From: a virus
Taxonomy: Duplodnaviria; Heunggongvirae; Uroviricota; Caudoviricetes
Direction: 5' to 3' (one strand)
DNA: 64,000 nucleotides
Virus record (IMG/VR): IMGVR_UViG_2880389630_000005
A model generated the notes under the pieces. It was not told the origin of the DNA. It made no database searches and saw nothing but the letters and a program-made list of their open reading frames with translations. Shown here piece by piece: positions 46,814 to 57,776 of the stretch. Every line of letters begins with the position of its first letter. Position 1 is the first letter of the stretch. Both the position numbers and the translations under genes were made by a program.

Positions 46814-47251
46814 TTATTTCAGGCACTGAGTCCTGATGTATTCCTGCAGGTAGTCAACCTGCGCGGTTATCCTGTCGATTCCACTTCGGAGACGGTAATA
46901 ATTGAGTTCAGCATCTGCTGTAAGTCCTGGACTTTCTCCATCGCCCATGCCGCTGGCTCCGGTCGTTGACTTTGCACAGGTGGCGGCGACTTGCAGGCGC
47001 TTACGCCCAGCAGAAACATCAGCACGGAGACTTTCGATAGTCGCGTTAGCATCAGCAAGCTCCTTTGTGTATCTGGCGTCAAGTTCTGCTACATCACGTT
47101 GACGCTTCTGCATGTCAGCGATTGTGGATGCGGCCTTATCGCGCTGCTCTTTGTAGGCGATGGCGTTATCACGGTAGTGATTAACAGCCCATGACAGGCA
47201 AACGATGATGCAGATAACCAGAGCGGAGATAATCGCGGTTACTCTGCTCAT
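46814..47251 (-). CDS. Rz: i-spanin Rz
   Basis: 145 aa; N-terminal TM ([30 protein letters not shown]) matches lambda Rz. Confidence 0.8.
46867..47082 (-). CDS. Rz1: o-spanin Rz1 (embedded in Rz, +1 frame)
   Basis: Lipobox LLGVSAC followed by Pro-rich segment; true start probably an internal Met. Confidence 0.6.
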
Positions 47252-47724
47252 ACCTCAATCTCTCTTACCGTTCCGCCAGCTTCTTTGAATTTTGCAATCA
47301 GGCTGTCAGCCTTATGCTCGAACTGACCATAACCAGCCCCCGGCAGTGAAGCCCAGATATTGCTGCAACGGTCGATTGCCTGACGGATATCACCGCGATC
47401 AATCATCGGTAAAGCGCCACGTTCCTTAATCTGTTGCAGCGCCACAGCGTCCTGACTTTTCGGAGAGAAGTCTTTCAGACCAAGCTGCTTACGGTAGGCA
47501 TCCCACCAACGGGAAAGAAGCTGGTAGCGTCCGGCGGCTGTTGATTTGAGTTTGGGGTTTAGCGTGACAAGTTTGCGAGGGTGATCTGAGTAATCAGTGA
47601 ATAGCTCTCCGCCTACAATGACGTCATAACCATGATTTCTGGTTTTCTGCCGTCCGTTATCAGTTCCCTCTGACCACGCCAGCATATCGAGGAACGCCTT
47701 ACGTTGATTATTGATTTCCACCAT
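47248..47724 (-). CDS. R: endolysin R (lytic transglycosylase)
   Basis: 158 aa; essentially identical to remembered lambda R ([39 protein letters not shown]...). Confidence 0.9.
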
Positions 47725-48031
47725 CTTCTACTCCGGCTTTTTTAGCAGCGAAGCGTTTGATAAGCGAACCAATCGAGTCAGTACCGATGTAGCCGATGAA
47801 CACGCTCGTTATATAAGCGAGATTGCTACTTAGTCCGGCGAAGTCGAGAAGGTCACGAATGAACCAGGCGATAATGGCGCACATCGTTGCGTCGATTACT
47901 GTTTTTGTAAACGCACCGCCATTATATCTGCCGCGAAGGTACGCCATTGCAAACGCAAGGATTGCCCCGATGCCTTGTTCCTTTGCCGCGAGAATGGCGG
48001 CTAACAGGTCATGTTTTTCTGGCATCTTCAT
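47708..48031 (-). CDS. S: holin S (dual-start S107/S105)
   Basis: 107 aa; [39 protein letters not shown] matches lambda S. Confidence 0.9.
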
Positions 48032-48039
48032 GTCTTACC

Positions 48040-48495
48040 CCCCAATAAGGGGATTTGCTCTATTTAATTAGGAATAAGGTCGATTACTGATAGAACAAAT
48101 CCAGGCTACTGTGTTTAGTAATCAGATTTGTTCGTGACCGATATGCACGGGCAAAACGGCAGGAGGTTGTTAGCGCGACCTCCTGCCACCCGCTTTCACG
48201 AAGGTCATGTGTAAAAGGCCGCAGCGTAACTATTACTAATGAATTCAGGACAGACAGTGGCTACGGCTCAGTTTGGGTTGTGCTGTTGCTGGGCGGCGAT
48301 GACGCCTGTACGCATTTGGTGATCCGGTTCTGCTTCCGGTATTCGCTTAATTCAGCACAACGGAAAGAGCACTGGCTAACCAGGCTCGCCGACTCTTCAC
48401 GATTATCGACTCAATGCTCTTACCTGTTGTGCAAATAAAAAAAGCCACCGTTGCAACTTAAGAGTCACTAACGGCAGCTTACCCTCTAATTATGG
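48040..48495 (-). promoter_or_regulatory. late promoter pR' / qut / tR' region between Q and S
   Basis: Noncoding stretch; about 48040-48430 matches remembered lambda sequence upstream of S; hairpin plus T-run near 48436-48470 on - strand. Confidence 0.5.
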
Positions 48496-49014
48496 CTAAA
48501 TGGATAATTGCATGTCAAGGTTTTTAACAGCAATATGCTTAACTTTCTCAACACGTTTACGCATTTTGAAAGCATTTTGCATTGGTTGGTATAAAACAAA
48601 TAATGACGCTTTCAGGATGTCGTCAATTTCGTTTCTACAGGTTGCCAGTGAAGGTTTTCTCCATCCCTCGCCACCACGTCCACACATCTTGCGTGGCTTT
48701 GCAGTCGCGTGATAGTAGGATGCAATTGCTCGCTTAGATGAACCATGAGCGTAGTAGCTGAGGAGGATGCCAAAGGCTTTCTTGTCAATGTACATGACGG
48801 AATCGACGACCTGAGAAATCAACATTCCATCATCATCATTACACATTGGCCTTGTCATGACTCTTCCCGGCTCTACGCTCTCCATGAACTTCGCTATTAC
48901 GCTGCTCATGCGCTTTTCCAGACGACCTGAATAAACCCATGCGCCCCACAGTTCAAGCCAGCCATTCAGCCACTCGTGCTGCTCTTTGGTGAGGTTTAGT
49001 TCTCTTATGCCCAT
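48496..49014 (-). CDS. Q: late antiterminator Q (non-lambda allele)
   Basis: 172 aa just upstream of pR'/lysis cassette; Cys cluster; unlike lambda Q in sequence. Confidence 0.65.
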
Positions 49015-49676
49015 GCGCCTTCTCCCTGTACCTGAATCAATGTGAGGTTTCCGCAGAACACTGCGCCGGTATCGATATACATCTGGTTGGCAAACTTGAG
49101 TGGTTTCACTGCTGGCGTATGACCAAAGATGAACGTGTCCGCGCCTTTGATTTCTTTCACGATCCCGTTTTGTGAGTTGCTGATTCGTTCGCGGTTCCAG
49201 ATTACCTGCTGATGATCAACTGGCTTTCCAAACTCGTATTCGTCACAAGGATAATCGGCGTGGCAGATGACATATTTTTTATCTTTGCTCACCAGTTCGA
49301 TGATTAACGGAAGTTCATCTGCTTTATGGGCAAGAGCTTTAGCCAGAATTTCTTTGTCGTAATCGAGATTAAAGAACCAGCCACCGCCATTAAGTAGCCA
49401 GTGATTGACGTTTCCACGCTCTGATAAGCCATCAATCATCATTTGCTCATGGTTTCCACGTACAGCTCTGAACCAGGGGAATGTGATTAATTCCAGGCAT
49501 TCGACGTTCTCTGTACCGCGATCGACCAAATCGCCAACCGAGATAAGCAGGTCTTTTTTGGTGTCGAATCCTATCGTCTCCAGTTTTTTCATCAGGTTCG
49601 TGTAGCATCCGTGCAGATCGCCAACTACCCAAATATTTCGGTATTTTCTGCCATCAATTTTTTCGTAATAGCGCAT
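49005..49676 (-). CDS. ninI: Ser/Thr protein phosphatase NinI
   Basis: Starts at internal Met (MRYYEKIDG...); GDLHGC, GDLVDRG, GNHE metallophosphatase motifs; matches lambda NinI. Confidence 0.85.
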
Positions 49677-49860
49677 CTCTTTCACTCCATCCGCGATGAA
49701 CCATGAGAACGTCGTTGACGATGGCGTGCATTTTCCCGTCTTTATCATCAACGTATTTTCTGACCGTACCGCGACTACATTTCAGTCTGCGTGCTACTTC
49801 TGTCTGGTTTCCGTATGCTTCAACGAGCATGTCTGGAATGGTTTTTACTGAGAACGTCAT
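49654..49860 (-). CDS. ninH: NinH
   Basis: 68 aa; identical to remembered lambda NinH. Confidence 0.85.
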
Positions 49861-50468
49861 GCGGCCTCACTTCTGCTATTTCGCAGGTCTTTGAGTTTCT
49901 GTTGGTACTCTGCCTTGATCGCCTTGCACTCTTCGATAGTCCAGCGATGGCGGTTATGGTTTGATTCGATTTCGTCTACTGCTTCCTGCCCGATGCGGCT
50001 AATCAGTTCGACGCGATACGGAACGAGATTTCCGCTTTTGTGCTGGTTGCACACCACGCATTGCTTGTGAATATTGCGTTCATCAAATCGGAGTTGAGGT
50101 GCCGCAGCAGTTGTCCGGTAATGTCCGGCATCCCACTGAGCAGACGTGAGCGTTCCGCACGAGATACATGGTAAGTCGCGGTCTCTTTCTCTGATGAAGG
50201 CGTTTACGGCTTGTTGGGCTTGTTTAATCCAGTAACTGCGGGGCTTTAAAGCGAGTTTTCGAATCTTCAGTTTATCTTTCTGTTTCTGTTCCTCTCGTCG
50301 TCGTTTCTTCTCTGCTGCTTTTTCCGCTTTTTCGCGTTCTTTGCTTCGTCGTTCGAGTGCTATCTTTGTTCCACACTCTGGAGAGCACCACCACTGATTA
50401 GCGAATGCAGGGTGAAACCATTCCCGACATTCATCGTTTTTACATCGTCTTCGCGCTGGTTTAGCCAT
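49857..50468 (-). CDS. ninG: recombination endonuclease NinG (Rap)
   Basis: 203 aa; matches remembered lambda NinG. Confidence 0.85.
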
Positions 50469-50853
50469 GACGTCTCCCCCATTTCTCTTGGCATCTCCTC
50501 AACCACACACGCATATTTTGGCTGGTAATATCGGTATGCTCTCCGCTGTATTTCTTTTGTGAGTGTTTGCATCTCACATAAACAAATACGGCAAGCAATG
50601 GATATGCGAATAACAAAATAAATAACAGAGCTGTAGCAACAGATACTTTCACAAAAAATGCAGGCAACTCTCTGACCTGATAGTCTGGAAAATCCAAGAA
50701 TTCATCGATTATGTTGTTAGCAACATTGGTAGTTGCTATACATGCGACTGACAGACAATCAAAATAATTAAAGTCATATCCAGCCGCAGCAGCCCATGTT
50801 GGATTGTCTTGAAAATGTTTAAACGTTATTTGTCCGTATCGGCTAATCACCAT
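50461..50853 (-). CDS. hypothetical membrane protein inserted between ninF and ninG
   Basis: 130 aa with a hydrophobic helix ([28 protein letters not shown]); AT-rich; absent from lambda at this position. Confidence 0.35.
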
Positions 50854-51022
50854 CGTCTTCTTCCTCGTACATTGAGCTATTCGGATCGCTCATCAGTTCT
50901 GCGCAGCAATCGGAGCACACGTGAACTTCCAGCACATGCAGCTTCTGACCGCAGTTAGCGCACGTTAAAGCTCGCTCGACGCTTTCTTTCTGGTATTGGA
51001 GGGATTGGGATGGGCTAAGCAT
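50843..51022 (-). CDS. ninF: NinF
   Basis: 59-aa ORF found by hand translation (below ORF-track cutoff): [36 protein letters not shown]... matches lambda NinF. Confidence 0.7.
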   Translation of the reverse strand: MLSPSQSLQYQKESVERALTCANCGQKLHVLEVHVCSDCCAELMSDPNSSMYEEEDDGD

Positions 51023-51386
51023 TATTGGCGTCCTGAATCATGAGAAAGACAATCATGGCGGCGCGGAGGGGATTTTCATGTATAGCTCGCTTAGATTTAC
51101 AGTAGGCCACACCGCGTGCACCCCACTCGTCTTCATCGAGATTGATAATGCTAATCCTGTATTTTTCAATAATCGGCCATGCGTCTGCTGGGTTTGCGCA
51201 TGGGTTAAAGGATCCGCGCTCAACTTCTACTTCAACTGCGTCTCCGTTTACAATGTCTCCCTCAAATGAGATAAACACCATCGCGCCATTCTCACCTTCT
51301 TTGTAATCCGGTGATCCGTTATGAATGGCTTCGAATACCGCCACGTTAATTTCAAAATCACTTAACTGTGAATAATCCATTGTCAT
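51015..51386 (-). CDS. hypothetical protein (NinX-like position)
   Basis: 123 aa between ninE and ninF, where P22 carries ninX. Confidence 0.4.
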
Positions 51387-51559
51387 TTCCTAGCACGATG
51401 TCTTAGCCACCGGATATCCCACAGGTGAGCCGTGTAATTGAATGTTTTTACGTCAGATTCTTTTGGGATTGGCTTGCGTTTATTTCTGGAGCGTTTCGTT
51501 GGAAGGTATTTGCAGTTTTCGCAGATGATGTCGGTGAAACTTCGTCGCTGTCGCCTCAT
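51383..51559 (-). CDS. ninE: NinE
   Basis: Starts at internal Met; [53 protein letters not shown] matches lambda NinE. Confidence 0.8.
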
Positions 51560-51996
51560 GCCGCCCTGTCTCCCCATCTCGCTTTCCACTCCAGAGCCAG
51601 TCGCGCTTCGTCTGACCACTTAACGCCACGTTCTGTACCGAATGCCTGTATAAGCTCTAATAGCTCCGCAAATTCGCTTACACGCATCCTGCTGGTTGAC
51701 TGGCCTATTACCACAAAGCCATTCCCGGCAAGGTTAGGAACAACGTCCTGCTGCTTTAATGCTGCGGTAAACACACACTTCCAGCTTTCTGCATCCAGCC
51801 AGCGACCATGCCATTCAACCTGACGAGAGACGTCACCTAAGCAGGCCCATAGCTTCCTGTTTTGGTCTAAGCTGCGGTTGCGTTCCTGAATGGTTACTAC
51901 GATTGGTTTGGTTGGGTCTGGAAGGATTTGCTGTACTGCGTGAATAGCGTTTTGCTGATGTGCTGGAGATCGAATTTCAAAGGTTAGTTTTTTCAT
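51556..51996 (-). CDS. ninB: recombination protein NinB (Orf)
   Basis: Starts at internal Met ([31 protein letters not shown]...); matches lambda NinB. Confidence 0.85.
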
Positions 51997-52073
51997 GACT
52001 TCCCTCTCCCCCAAATAAAAAGGCCTGCGATTACCAGCAGGCCTGTTATTAGCTCAGTGATGTAGATGGTCAT

Positions 52074-53954
52074 TTAATACTCCGTCACGTTTTCCTGTCG
52101 CCACGCCTCGTCATATTCCGATTTCGGCATATTGGCGATGTAGCTATATGGCGATCCTGATTCAAGTTGCAGGAACTGGTGCGATTGCTCGTCAAGGAAC
52201 AACGGGACACCACCTTCCCAACCTTCGCCGTTACGTTGCTTTTCAAGCATCAAAACAGATGCCGGAGATGCCAGTAGCTGTTCGTCCTTCTCTGACATCT
52301 TTTCACCACTCTGAACTCTCTGTAACGCTCTCTCGCGAGCCTTGTTACGCCAGATGATAAAAAGGTTGTCTGTCAGGTCTGTTATCGCTCCAGAGCCTTT
52401 TACGTCCATTTTCCCGGTTGGTTTTTCTTCGCTATCTCCTTTTCTGGAGTGAGTAACGAGAATGACGTGGGAGTTTGTTTTGTTTTTGAAGTCACAAATC
52501 GAGTCAACAAATGCTTTCTGCCCGTTATAGTCATCGTCACCTATGCCGCATTTCATCAGGCTGTCGATGATGAATAACTGGATCCCGTATCGGCGGCGAG
52601 CGTAGTCGAATATTTCGATCAGCCTGTCGGCTTTCGCCGTTCCGGTCAGACCAAACACCCAAAGTCTCTCGTCATAAAATTTAAATGCAGAGTCAATTTC
52701 CAGCACTGGCGGCATCTTGCAGCACGTCGCCTGACGGGTAAGGCGCTTAAGGAGAATACCAGGCTTCAGCTCAAGTGACGCGATGCACGTCTTCACACCC
52801 TGACGCATTGCCTCAAGTGCCATATGCCCGACAACCTCCGTTTTTCCGTGACCGTTCACACCATTGACCAGCGTCAACTCGGCCTCACGGAACTGGAATT
52901 TATCTGCCAGAGATTCCCACGGTGGATTAAACAGATACTGCTGCTTGCCGTAGAAAGCGTTGATAGTGTCCTGGTAAAACTCTCGCGCGCTGTAGAGTTC
53001 TTCAGGATCGAAGTAGGATGCCGTGCCGATGTACTGCCAGATTTCATCCTCGGTAACACCGTTCATCAGGCATTCGTTGATGTCTTTGTACGGCAGAGTA
53101 ACAAGACGGCAACGATGTTCACCGAGTCGGCTTGCGATTTCCCTTGCGGCTTCACGACCAACATCATCAACGTCCATCGAGATGAATATTTCCTCAAACC
53201 TGTCGAGGTTGTGATACTCAAACTCAATCCACTGTTGCTTAGCGCCTTTCCCGCCACCAAACGGCACGGATAACGCCGAGATGCCGTATTGCGCATAGCT
53301 CATACAATCAATTTCGCCTTCGCAAAGTACAACCGCCCTCACGCCAGCGTCCAGAGCCTGCCATCCAAACAGACAAGGTTCGCAATCACCTTCTGCCATA
53401 ATGACTTTCTTCCCGTCCGGTCGCTCAGTGCTGATTCGCTTGACCTGCAACAACTCACCATCGCGTTTGTACGGAAGCACCAGTGCATCAAGTTCTCGTT
53501 CTCCATTCCACACCTTGCCGCTGACAACCTCGTAGCGCTTTACGACTTCTGGCGATATGCCACGCGATTGCAGGTACTCAAGATGGGATTCTGTTCTGGT
53601 AACGTAGCGGGCGATTTTCTTGCGGTCAGGTCTGGAGAATTTCTTCTCACGTTTGGCATCGAAATGGTGATCGTCATCCTTGATTCCGAGAAAGGCTTTC
53701 GCTTCCTGCATAGCCTGATGCAGGTTAATTCCACGACATGCCATCCACAAATCAAGCATGTCACCGCCGTCTCCCTCAGCGAAATCAGCCCATTTTTTCT
53801 TGCCGCTAAGGTTGACCTTAAGGCTGTTTCCCTTGTCACCGTTGACGTTACCGGCAACCCACTCATGCCCCTCTCTCTTGCCGTTTGGCAACAGGTGCGG
53901 AGCCACCCTGTCAACCTGCGCCCAAAGCAGGTCACTGAGTTCACTTGGAGTCAT
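52074..53954 (-). CDS. bifunctional DNA primase/replicative helicase
   Basis: 626 aa; central Toprim-like acidic cluster; C-terminal Walker A GVNGHGKT and RecA-like helicase features. Confidence 0.7.
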   Translation of the reverse strand: MTPSELSDLLWAQVDRVAPHLLPNGKREGHEWVAGNVNGDKGNSLKVNLSGKKKWADFAEGDGGDMLDLWMACRGINLHQAMQEAKAFLGIKDDDHHFDAKREKKFSRPDRKKIARYVTRTESHLEYLQSRGISPEVVKRYEVVSGKVWNGERELDALVLPYKRDGELLQVKRISTERPDGKKVIMAEGDCEPCLFGWQALDAGVRAVVLCEGEIDCMSYAQYGISALSVPFGGGKGAKQQWIEFEYHNLDRFEEIFISMDVDDVGREAAREIASRLGEHRCRLVTLPYKDINECLMNGVTEDEIWQYIGTASYFDPEELYSAREFYQDTINAFYGKQQYLFNPPWESLADKFQFREAELTLVNGVNGHGKTEVVGHMALEAMRQGVKTCIASLELKPGILLKRLTRQATCCKMPPVLEIDSAFKFYDERLWVFGLTGTAKADRLIEIFDYARRRYGIQLFIIDSLMKCGIGDDDYNGQKAFVDSICDFKNKTNSHVILVTHSRKGDSEEKPTGKMDVKGSGAITDLTDNLFIIWRNKARERALQRVQSGEKMSEKDEQLLASPASVLMLEKQRNGEGWEGGVPLFLDEQSHQFLQLESGSPYSYIANMPKSEYDEAWRQENVTEY

Positions 53955-54061
53955 GATTCCCTCAGATTGAGATTTTTAAACCAGAAATCGACAAACGAAA
54001 TACTTAACCAGCCGTGGTTATAACCAGCGACCAGTAGCGATTTGATTTTTGATTTCATGGT

Positions 54062-54922
54062 TCACCTGTCGAAAAACACGTAGCCAGTTTTCGATACGGT
54101 GATTGCGGATGATGGTTTGGATTGTGGTTGAATAGTTTCTGGCTTCTCGTCGTTCCAGCGCTGACCGTTCAGGTAGCTCGATGGTAACAACCTGTCGAAT
54201 CCGAACTGCTTACCATTCCTGCATGCGATGTCTTCTGCCAGCATCGTGGCAAACTCGCTTGCCGTACCCCTGGTAGTTTTACGCCATTCCCTGAACTGTG
54301 TTCTGAATGCCGAAGCTGCGTTTTTCTTCCCGGCTTTCCGCATGCCTGCACACCAGAATATTTCCTCGAATGCCTTGTCGGTTTCTTGGTGACGGTCAGA
54401 TGATTTTTCACACTCCGTCCGAACACTTTCGGACATAGTGTTTTTATTATTTCTTTTTTCTTTTGTAATAGTTTCTTTTGTGTGTCCCTGTTTTGGTGAC
54501 AGCGCTGTCACCGTTTTGGTGACACTTTTTGTCACCAATGCAGTGACATTATCACCAGAGTAGTGACACCCTTCGATTTGCCATTCTTCGATGTTCTTGT
54601 TAGGCCCGATTTGCTGGCCTTCGCGAAGGATAACCTTCATCGCGATAAGCTCATTCTTGGCCTTGTTTACCTTCTGTCTTGGCAGCCTGGTAATTTGAGC
54701 TAACTGACTATCAGAGATGCGATCCATCTTTTTACCGTAGCCGTATGTTTTACGGCATATGGCGTGGGCAACCTTGCTCTGATTTTTCGTTAAATCTGCG
54801 CCGATAAGCTCTTCATACAGGGCATTTGCAAGACGGGTATAACCATCTTCAACTTCTGCCACACGACGCTCCACAGGCCGTTGTGAAGGCCTTAAATGTG
54901 TTACGGTTGCAAGATTACTCAT
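54062..54922 (-). CDS. replication initiator (lambda O-like N-terminal domain)
   Basis: 286 aa; N-terminal segment (GADLTK.Q.KV...RKTYG...MDRI.DSQL..IT.LP...GPNKNI.EW) similar to lambda O; iterons inside the gene. Confidence 0.7.
54470..54575. repeat. replication origin iterons within the O-like gene
   Basis: Repeated GGTGACA/TGTCACC half-sites (GGTGACAGCGCTGTCACC, GGTGACACTTTTTGTCACC, ...) next to an AT-rich stretch (about 54420-54470). Confidence 0.6.
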
Positions 54923-55061
54923 GACCTTTCTCCTTCTGCATCAGCTTCACTTTTTCCAACTCAGCCCGGAATCGACCAGGCTGCTTGAAGCTGGACAGGA
55001 AGCGATCACGTAGTATGTGTTTGTGAATTTTGTCCTGGTAAGGACTGAGTTGTTTTGTCAT
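54915..55061 (-). CDS. small hypothetical ORF between cII and O-like gene
   Basis: 48-aa ORF found by hand translation ([21 protein letters not shown]...), overlapping the initiator start. Confidence 0.25.
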
Positions 55062-57152: not shown

Positions 57153-57776
57153 ATGTCATCAATCCGCTTAACTACGAGAATGAAAGAGGAAATCGCTCGT
57201 AACGCTTTAATTAAGTCTGGGGTTTTCACTGAACTTAAAGAAGTAACAAAGTTAAAGAACCAGCTTGCACTTGACGCCAGAGTTATTGCGTTTGGCGGTA
57301 AAAAGAAAACTGAGGAAGTGGAACAGTTATCATCCAAGTTAGTAGCTATAAGTGAAGAACTTGAAAAAATGGGATGTTCATTTTACTCACGCGATGTTCG
57401 TTCTACATCAATTTATCTGACTGTATCTGGCAGAAGGGTTGGATGGCTTTCATATGGGAAAGACGGCAACGGTGAAGATATATTGCTCCCTACTCCGACC
57501 AAAGATAAATGCATGTTTGACGCAGAACACGAAATAACAAAAAGGTTTGATGAAATCTGCGCATTGCAACAAAACCTTGAAGCCTTGAAAAAGGATATCG
57601 AATCAAATGTATGGGCTGCTTTGAACTCAGTCACAACAGTTAAGCGACTTATTGAAGTTTGGCCTGAAAGCAAAGAATTGCTACCAAAAGAAGAAGATAA
57701 AGCAAGTACAGCACTTCCTGCTTTACGGGTAGAAGATTTGAATAAGATGATTGGACTTCCTTCCGAGGCCGCATAG
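57153..57776 (+). CDS. hypothetical protein, first ORF of N-cIII accessory block
   Basis: About 207 aa from ATG with GAGGAA RBS; AT-rich; no motif recognised. Confidence 0.4.
   Translation: MSSIRLTTRMKEEIARNALIKSGVFTELKEVTKLKNQLALDARVIAFGGKKKTEEVEQLSSKLVAISEELEKMGCSFYSRDVRSTSIYLTVSGRRVGWLSYGKDGNGEDILLPTPTKDKCMFDAEHEITKRFDEICALQQNLEALKKDIESNVWAALNSVTTVKRLIEVWPESKELLPKEEDKASTALPALRVEDLNKMIGLPSEAA

Follow-up and report, generated by a model that had tools for sequence, protein, structure and literature searches.

Positions 50461-51386 of the 64,000-nucleotide (nt) stretch analysed here (IMG/VR virus record IMGVR_UViG_2880389630_000005, Caudoviricetes; the whole stretch is called the window below) lie in the nin (delayed-early) segment of a P22-like Escherichia coli prophage, in which all nin genes are on the minus strand. 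Two open reading frames (ORFs) of this segment, one of 123 amino acids (aa) between ninE and ninF and one of 130 aa between ninF and ninG, had been taken as extra genes by the first-pass annotation. It is very likely that the 123-aa ORF is NinX, and that the 130-aa ORF encodes a single-pass inner-membrane protein of the PHROG 2638 family, carried as an exchangeable module between ninF and ninG.

The evidence indicates that the 130-aa ORF is a genuine gene, beyond a chance ORF. Among the copy in the window and 20 further IMG/VR copies, 13 distinct alleles are found, all of which keep the 130-codon frame, and the polymorphic sites of these alleles are distributed over codon positions 1, 2 and 3 as 4/2/16; almost all of the allelic amino-acid changes fall in the C-terminal tail. 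In addition, homologues occur in other Enterobacterales phages at 16-58% identity. It is because of these intact alleles, the codon-position bias and the spread of homologues that the ORF is regarded as real, with both coding signal and conservation present. The AT-rich character ascribed to it earlier is also borne out: its guanine-cytosine (GC) content is 39.7% (GC3, the value at third codon positions, 36.6%), compared with 45-51% in its neighbours and 49.1% in the window.

The protein matches PHROG 2638 with an E value of 3.1e-55, residues 9-127 aligning with profile positions 2-120 of 120, and all 46 of the 46 aligned relatives match the same family, which is labelled 'unknown function'. 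A word-indexed search of 5.8 billion proteins returned 13 relatives, and a profile search of 1.84 billion cluster representatives returned 43 clusters, nearly all of them stand-alone proteins of ~60-135 aa. The identical protein, WP_000237096.1, is recorded on at least 1,000 E. coli and Salmonella contigs, always named hypothetical. The gene is thus already catalogued, as hypothetical or of 'unknown function' in every source. Searches of Pfam, NCBIfam and PADLOC with the 130-aa protein gave no meaningful match, only weak noise driven by the transmembrane segment (ATP synthase c, LapA_dom); in PADLOC-DB, 0 families matched at E <= 0.1, and a sequence-profile search of the PDB gave no match.

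The boundaries of the module and the features on which the following comparison relies are as follows.
50461-50853, minus strand: the 130-aa gene (identical to RefSeq WP_000237096.1; PHROG 2638).
50575-50661, minus strand: predicted transmembrane helix, codons 65-93 of the 130-aa gene (Kyte-Doolittle; inside model helix 60-101).
50465-50849, minus strand: the 385-base-pair (bp) segment missing from Huey, placed by alignment, its edges being ambiguous within the ATGG shared at both ends.
50862-50866, minus strand: GAGGA, Shine-Dalgarno-like, upstream of the ATG of the 130-aa gene (50851-50853), from the sequence and the Huey comparison.
50474-50480, minus strand: GGGGGAG, Shine-Dalgarno-like, in the 3' end of the cassette, 5 nt upstream of the ninG ATG (50466-50468).
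50843-51022, minus strand: ninF, 59 aa, zinc-ribbon-like (PF05810, E = 8.6e-14; RefSeq 'protein NinF').
49857-50468, minus strand: ninG, 203 aa (PF05766 NinG, E = 4.4e-92).

The first-pass annotation had placed the ORF between ninF and ninG, overlapping both, and the overlaps are 11 nt with ninF and 8 nt with ninG (ATGGCTAA). By comparing the window with the phages Huey and IME10, which are ~96-97% identical to it on both flanks and lack the 130-aa gene, the extent of the cassette can be fixed. The alignment with Huey shows a difference of exactly 385 bp, reaching from start codon to start codon. In Huey, the junction reads ...GACGATGG followed directly by CTAAACCAGCG (in longer context, ...GAGGAAGAAGACGATGG followed by CTAAACCAGCG), and the ninF stop and the ninG start overlap as ATGGCTAA. 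In the window, ...GACGATGG is followed by TGATTAGCC at one junction and ...GTCATGG by CTAAACCAGCG at the other (in longer context, ...GAGGAAGAAGACGATGG by TGATTAGCC and ...GGGGGAGACGTCATGG by CTAAACCAGCG), and it is the stop of the cassette that overlaps the ninG ATG as ATGGCTAA. The GAGGA that precedes ninG in Huey precedes the 130-aa gene in the window; since this GAGGA and the ATG are shared with Huey ninG, the cassette takes over the Shine-Dalgarno sequence and the ATG of ninG, and its 3' end brings a new GGGGGAG and ATGG that rebuild the ninG start. The module in this way reaches exactly from the start codon that ninG originally had to a regenerated ATGGCTAA start.

Other copies show how the joints are used. 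In Klebsiella phage phiKp_30, the cassette is present at 97% identity, and the likeness stops exactly at ATGGCTAA, the downstream sequence being different. The gene that follows the cassette varies: some contigs have NinG there, and other E. coli prophages and viral contigs have DUF1364 with RusA. The stop-start joint (-8 nt) remains ATGGCTAA or ATGGCTGA even in homologues with as little as 50-58% identity, which occupy the same slot, and because this joint is retained, the last two residues of the subfamily are always [H/N/Y]-Gly. At the insertion boundaries, no flanking repeats were found; a single 10-nt direct repeat, GAAGACGATG, belongs to ninF and ninG themselves and occurs in Huey as well.

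A transposable element or insertion sequence was considered and rejected, as the boundaries lack flanking repeats and the cassette encodes only the 130-aa protein, with no transposase match. Given the exact start-to-start extent, the missing repeats, the lack of a promoter- or terminator-like site of its own and the same slot in homologues at 50-58% identity, the sequences argue that the cassette is a long-standing exchangeable nin module, moved by the usual lambdoid mosaic exchange at gene boundaries and not by transposition. The earlier idea of a mobile insertion is therefore retained in the lambdoid-mosaic sense, the cassette being an insertion relative to Huey and IME10, and dropped in the sense of a transposable element.

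The same overlaps bear on expression. In a simple consensus scan, the interval from ninB to ninG showed neither a minus-strand promoter-like site nor a terminator-like site; the only terminator-like hairpin in the scan lies upstream of ninB (52044-52021). As the start and stop of the 130-aa gene overlap its neighbours and no promoter- or terminator-like site of its own was found, the gene would depend on early-right transcription. We infer that its transcription belongs to the early-right operon and that ninF, the 130-aa gene and ninG are translated one after another, and ninG appears to be translationally coupled to the cassette. Early-right transcription is shut off by the repressor in lysogens. 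A gene transcribed from the early-right operon would therefore yield its protein only in lytic growth or on prophage induction.

The hydrophobic helix noticed in the first reading is clearly defined. A hydrophobic run covers residues 65-93, with a 19-residue Kyte-Doolittle mean that peaks at 2.61 (residues 75-93), and nearly all 46 family members have one dominant hydrophobic segment. The family shares a common layout of an N-terminal motif, a variable helix, a (D/E)xxVRELP turn, the transmembrane helix and a Lys/Arg-rich tail. The N-terminal motif, F..P..A...GY....D(C), spans residues 10-35 here; P18 and G25 do not vary among the 46 members, F14, A21, Y26 and D32 are conserved in at least 90%, and the motif is retained down to ~20% identity across genera. 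Inside the transmembrane helix there is a conserved aromatic-Pro motif (Y84-P85 here), and the tail carries a conserved Asn-x3-Trp face. The N-terminal 64 residues contain 3 K/R and 8 D/E, whereas the tail contains 10 K/R and 3 D/E, and this asymmetry of acidic N terminus and basic tail holds across the 46-member family. From the positive-inside rule applied to this asymmetry, we infer an N-out/C-in topology, with the basic tail in the cytoplasm and the conserved, acidic N-terminal ~64 residues in the periplasm.

The AlphaFold2 model of the full-length protein is helical, with a predicted local distance difference test score (pLDDT) of 85 and a predicted template-modelling score (pTM) of 0.71. 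It consists of a short hairpin (residues 2-9) and helices at 11-16, 18-23, 30-53, 60-101 and 108-128. Foldseek searches with the model against the PDB and a viral structure library gave no match at E <= 0.001, and fold searches otherwise returned generic helical hairpins; the best viral match, R9RF93 (109 aa, E 2e-3), may be a family member. Helix 30-53 was considered as a second transmembrane helix, which would give a hairpin like that of class II holins, and was rejected for the subfamily described here, in whose closest homologues this helix bears D/E residues and has low hydropathy; a few distant members do show a hydrophobic stretch at this position.

The other ORF of the pair is an ordinary nin gene. 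The 123-aa ORF scores 66.9 bits (E 2.4e-18) against PF10765 Phage_P22_NinX (DUF2591), whose gathering cutoff is 22.6, and the alignment is full-length, with ORF residues 4-118 on positions 1-114 of 114. It also matches PHROG 444 (E 9.4e-43) and is named 'phage protein NinX family protein' in RefSeq. The order NinE-ORF123-NinF seen here is annotated identically in HK446, mEp234, Sf101 and others, and in RefSeq, and the NinX stretch recurs in 400 phage records at 90-99% nucleotide identity, many of them annotated as NinX or DUF2591. The profile and the gene order thus identify the 123-aa ORF as NinX. The earlier remark that it sits where P22 has ninX was right, and the label 'extra' does not apply, since the ORF is NinX itself by PF10765 and RefSeq. 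Its start is ambiguous: the ATG at 51386 overlaps the ninE stop as ATGA and gives 123 aa, and the RefSeq start, two codons later at 51380, gives 121 aa. The search for a solved relative of NinX gave none. NinX is widespread, and to our knowledge no function has been described for it.

The family of the 130-aa gene is rare and is found in various gene neighbourhoods. The gene is carried by 36 of 5,426 complete E. coli genomes, including enteropathogenic E. coli (EPEC) E2348/69 and a group of genomes that are nearly identical to one another, among them one labelled O25b:H4-ST131. In a tblastn search of 50,697 phage records, a homologue was found in 16, and neither lambda nor P22 is among them, in agreement with the statement of the first-pass annotation that no counterpart was known in those two phages. 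A relative is encoded in 137 IMG/VR stretches, and 7 loci were found in 6 of 185,579 species-representative genomes, all of Enterobacterales. The locus scan was run with a 10-member alignment, the 46-member alignment being too divergent. Outside lambdoid phages, the gene occurs in large contigs of up to ~100 kb, including the P1-like SJ46 genome, where it lies between two ORFs with no assigned function, and in Yersinia phage P840 and Proteus Gorganvirus genomes; in these P840, P1-like SJ46 and Proteus Gorganvirus settings it is always within early, replication or recombination gene blocks. A homologue is also carried by Proteus phage PM-CJR; this phage lacks integrase and repressor genes, and a lytic lifestyle was suggested for it by its authors (PMC8539402).

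Clustering of the neighbours at 77 of 80 IMG/VR loci revealed no constant partner gene. The usual lambdoid neighbour is ninF, which is missing from the P1-like and Proteus phage contexts, and in a few contigs the family gene precedes ninF or follows ninB or dam. In some lambdoid contigs (L042, L049, ~3670-3846), a different ORF of 58 aa precedes the family gene; it apparently has two hydrophobic helices and has no Pfam match.

Several side observations concern the family and its surroundings. ORF53 of Yersinia phage vB_YenS-P840 (locus L003, 3498-3857), which shares 40% identity with the protein of the window, bears the GenBank name 'conotoxin'; this name is almost certainly spurious, as the product is a membrane protein of the PHROG 2638 type. 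An HNH endonuclease gene (168 aa, Pfam HNH_3) lies inside ninF at locus L019 (3299-4011), at L022-L024 and L026, and in E2348/69 (L094, 2786-3498). The 5' part of the split ninF (...HVLEVHVCERC) and its 3' end flank the endonuclease gene, and the 130-aa gene follows directly; in E2348/69, a complete ninF is annotated together with the remnant of an HNH gene and a second, short copy of ninF (51 aa). This insertion, not present in the window, resembles the splitting of ninF by a homing endonuclease or, possibly, by an intron. Furthermore, one family member (probably P0025, 131 aa, the assignment being presumed) also matches the HNH endonuclease family phrog_2118 (E 1.2e-9), and the C-terminal third of P0025 is divergent. 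This suggests a gene fusion or a truncation beside an HNH gene, which would be a second link of the family to homing endonucleases.

Because a relative is present in a phage suggested to be lytic and the gene would be expressed early, an envelope-directed accessory role in lytic growth is tentatively favoured for the 130-aa protein. The protein would act on an envelope target during the lytic programme and not in the lysogen, and its likeliest action may be to block the entry of DNA from a secondary phage or to alter an inner-membrane or periplasmic process of the host. The site of action of the conserved N-terminal motif may be the periplasm or the inner membrane, in the exclusion of superinfecting phage DNA or in the control of a host envelope process such as division, a membrane protease or lysis timing. 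By extension, PHROG 2638 could conceivably represent a class of envelope effectors, so far unrecognised, that Enterobacterales phages use in the lytic cycle, with an N-out/C-in arrangement.

Several points weigh against this proposal. Charge bias is all that places the N terminus outside, and 64 residues would have to cross the membrane without a signal peptide. When residues 1-64 are modelled alone, confidence falls to a pLDDT of 67 and a pTM of 0.35, so that the N-terminal region may not be an independent domain. A weak internal promoter could escape the simple consensus scan. Superinfection exclusion is an analogy, with no match in PADLOC, and a literature search returned no paper that mentions the 130-aa protein or PHROG 2638.

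Among the other explanations, the protein might be a membrane tether with a cytoplasmic N terminus that anchors the replication or recombination machinery, in the manner of phi29 p16.7 or p1. Replication or recombination neighbours are found in every context seen (NinB, NinG, RusA, exonuclease, helicase, primase, Dam), DNA or lipid could be bound by the basic tail, which contains Trp, and a confident model of the N-terminal motif needs the rest of the chain. However, the charge bias over the 46 members puts the basic tail, and not the N terminus, in the cytoplasm, and there is no match to a DNA-binding or other domain. The neighbourhood itself carries little weight, as the nin region consists of mixed non-essential genes and the neighbours differ between phages. 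A tether is considered unlikely.

A holin-like or lysis-timing protein, in which the helix and the charged tail would modulate membrane permeabilisation or the resident holin, is rather improbable. Holins are small proteins with transmembrane helices and a highly charged C terminus, and the transmembrane helix (65-93) and charged tail (10 K/R, 3 D/E) of the 130-aa protein fit this description, a feature that is not specific to holins; the Pro-aromatic motif is also conserved within the helix. But the gene lies outside the lysis cassette, which has its own lambda-family holin, and matches no holin family in Pfam, NCBIfam or PHROG. Moreover, it would be expressed with the early genes, before Q, and the lysis cassettes differ among the carrier phages.

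Equally improbable is a classic moron or lysogenic conversion gene, expressed from the prophage and protecting the lysogen, for instance by superinfection exclusion as with P22 SieA or HK97 gp15. Such a gene would account for the atypical base composition (GC 39.7% against 49%), the presence or absence between near-identical phages, the membrane location and the carriage by prophages of successful clones (O25b:H4-ST131, EPEC E2348/69). What defines a moron, however, is a promoter and terminator of its own together with prophage expression. The consensus scan found no such promoter-like or terminator-like site here, the start and stop overlapping the neighbours point to reliance on early-right transcription, which is off in lysogens, and a homologue resides in a Proteus phage without lysogeny genes.

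Finally, a selfish or neutral passenger that persists by hitch-hiking without benefit to the phage, for example by co-conversion beside an HNH homing endonuclease, is very improbable: the HNH gene that several contigs and E2348/69 have within ninF, immediately upstream of the cassette, the sporadic distribution and the dispensability of nin-region genes (Sf6 tolerates large nin-region deletions; PMC5630979) would fit it, but the third-position polymorphism bias with an always intact ORF, the conservation of the motif to ~20% identity across genera and the lack of an HNH gene near most loci, the window included, argue against it.

For the remaining genes of the segment, the assignments of NinB, NinE, NinF, NinG, NinH and NinI as lambda homologues made from the sequence were all upheld: NinB, NinE, NinF and NinG are confirmed by Pfam with strong scores, and NinH and NinI rest on RefSeq naming in the identical prophage, where the other nin genes carry RefSeq names as well.
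51556-52014, minus strand: NinB (Pfam, strong score; RefSeq name).
51383-51559, minus strand: ninE, 58 aa by the RefSeq start (PF05322 NinE, E = 1e-42).
51015-51386, minus strand: ninX, the 123-aa ORF (PF10765 Phage_P22_NinX; phrog_444; RefSeq name).
49654-49860, minus strand: NinH (RefSeq annotation of the identical prophage).
49005-49676 (RefSeq start), minus strand: NinI (RefSeq annotation of the identical prophage).
48496-49014, minus strand: Q.

The same DNA is found in E. coli strain p11A and in other genomes, one labelled O25b:H4-ST131, with 100% identity over the 441 bases compared. In those genomes, the nin region of the prophage has a toprim primase-helicase gene on one side and Q, the lysis genes and P22-type head genes on the other. 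The lysis cassette of the window is at 47248-48031, downstream of Q and ~2.4 kb downstream of the 130-aa gene, and comprises a lambda-family holin, a GH24 endolysin and a lysis protein (presumably a spanin). No RNA family was found by Rfam within 47000-55000.

Further observations concern the surrounding early genes. The terminator-like hairpin just upstream of ninB (52021-52044, minus strand) has an 8-bp stem (6 G-C pairs) ahead of a T run, and stands at the place taken in lambdoid phages by the N-dependent tR2-type terminator, which defines the nin region. The replication module contains one toprim protein of 626 aa, of the primase-helicase type (52074-53954, minus strand), and a second replication gene for a 286-aa initiator-type protein (RefSeq 'replication protein', 54062-54922). 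The same pair is present in E2348/69 and in several IMG/VR contigs that bear the 130-aa gene; in P22, gene 18 and gene 12 encode separate proteins at this position. In the early-left operon of the identical prophage, RefSeq names an 'Nmad5 family putative nucleotide modification protein' (~57153-57776 of the window, plus strand), whose gene adjoins N and is upstream of cIII, kil and an anti-RecBCD gene, with dATP/dGTP pyrophosphohydrolase-domain genes farther along. This neighbourhood is possibly a DNA-modification or anti-restriction module.

For annotation, these results mean that one 'extra' ORF is plain NinX and that the other is a genuine conserved gene and not an artefact. The locus illustrates, in compact and sharply bounded form, how lambdoid phages exchange single genes at start-codon joints with translational coupling kept, and in this the 130-aa gene behaves like many other accessory genes of the nin region. 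It also draws attention to a small membrane-protein family, with no Pfam entry, in prophages of E. coli lineages of clinical importance (ST131 and EPEC E2348/69) and in P1-like phage-plasmids. If the protein were a true exclusion or host-takeover factor, the catalogue of such factors would grow by one family, which would be useful and not surprising.

Compared with known systems, the 123-aa ORF matches P22 NinX by the same full-length profile and the same slot between ninE and ninF, with no notable difference beyond the ambiguity of its start. The 130-aa protein has its N-terminal motif, single transmembrane helix and basic tail in common with the other members of PHROG 2638, among them Klebsiella phage phiKp_30 gp350, Salmonella phage SJ46 gp088, Yersinia phage P840 ORF53 and Proteus phage PM-CJR gp081. 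Its subfamily differs from them in 8 extra N-terminal residues, predicted to form a beta-hairpin, and in a C terminus fixed as [H/N/Y]-Gly by the overlap with the start codon of the next gene. It resembles the lambdoid morons (HK97 gp15, lambda bor, lom) in being a single extra gene of atypical composition in some of a set of similar phages, but these have their own promoter and terminator, whereas no such sites were found for the 130-aa gene, which is apparently translationally coupled. It is similar to holins of classes I-III in its helix and charged tail, and unlike them in location, presumed early expression and family match. Lytic-cycle superinfection-exclusion or envelope proteins are known in T4 Imm and Sp and T5 Llp. 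No sequence or fold similarity to these was found, and the analogy proposed here is a functional one: like them, the 130-aa protein would be a small, early-expressed, membrane-anchored protein of the envelope.

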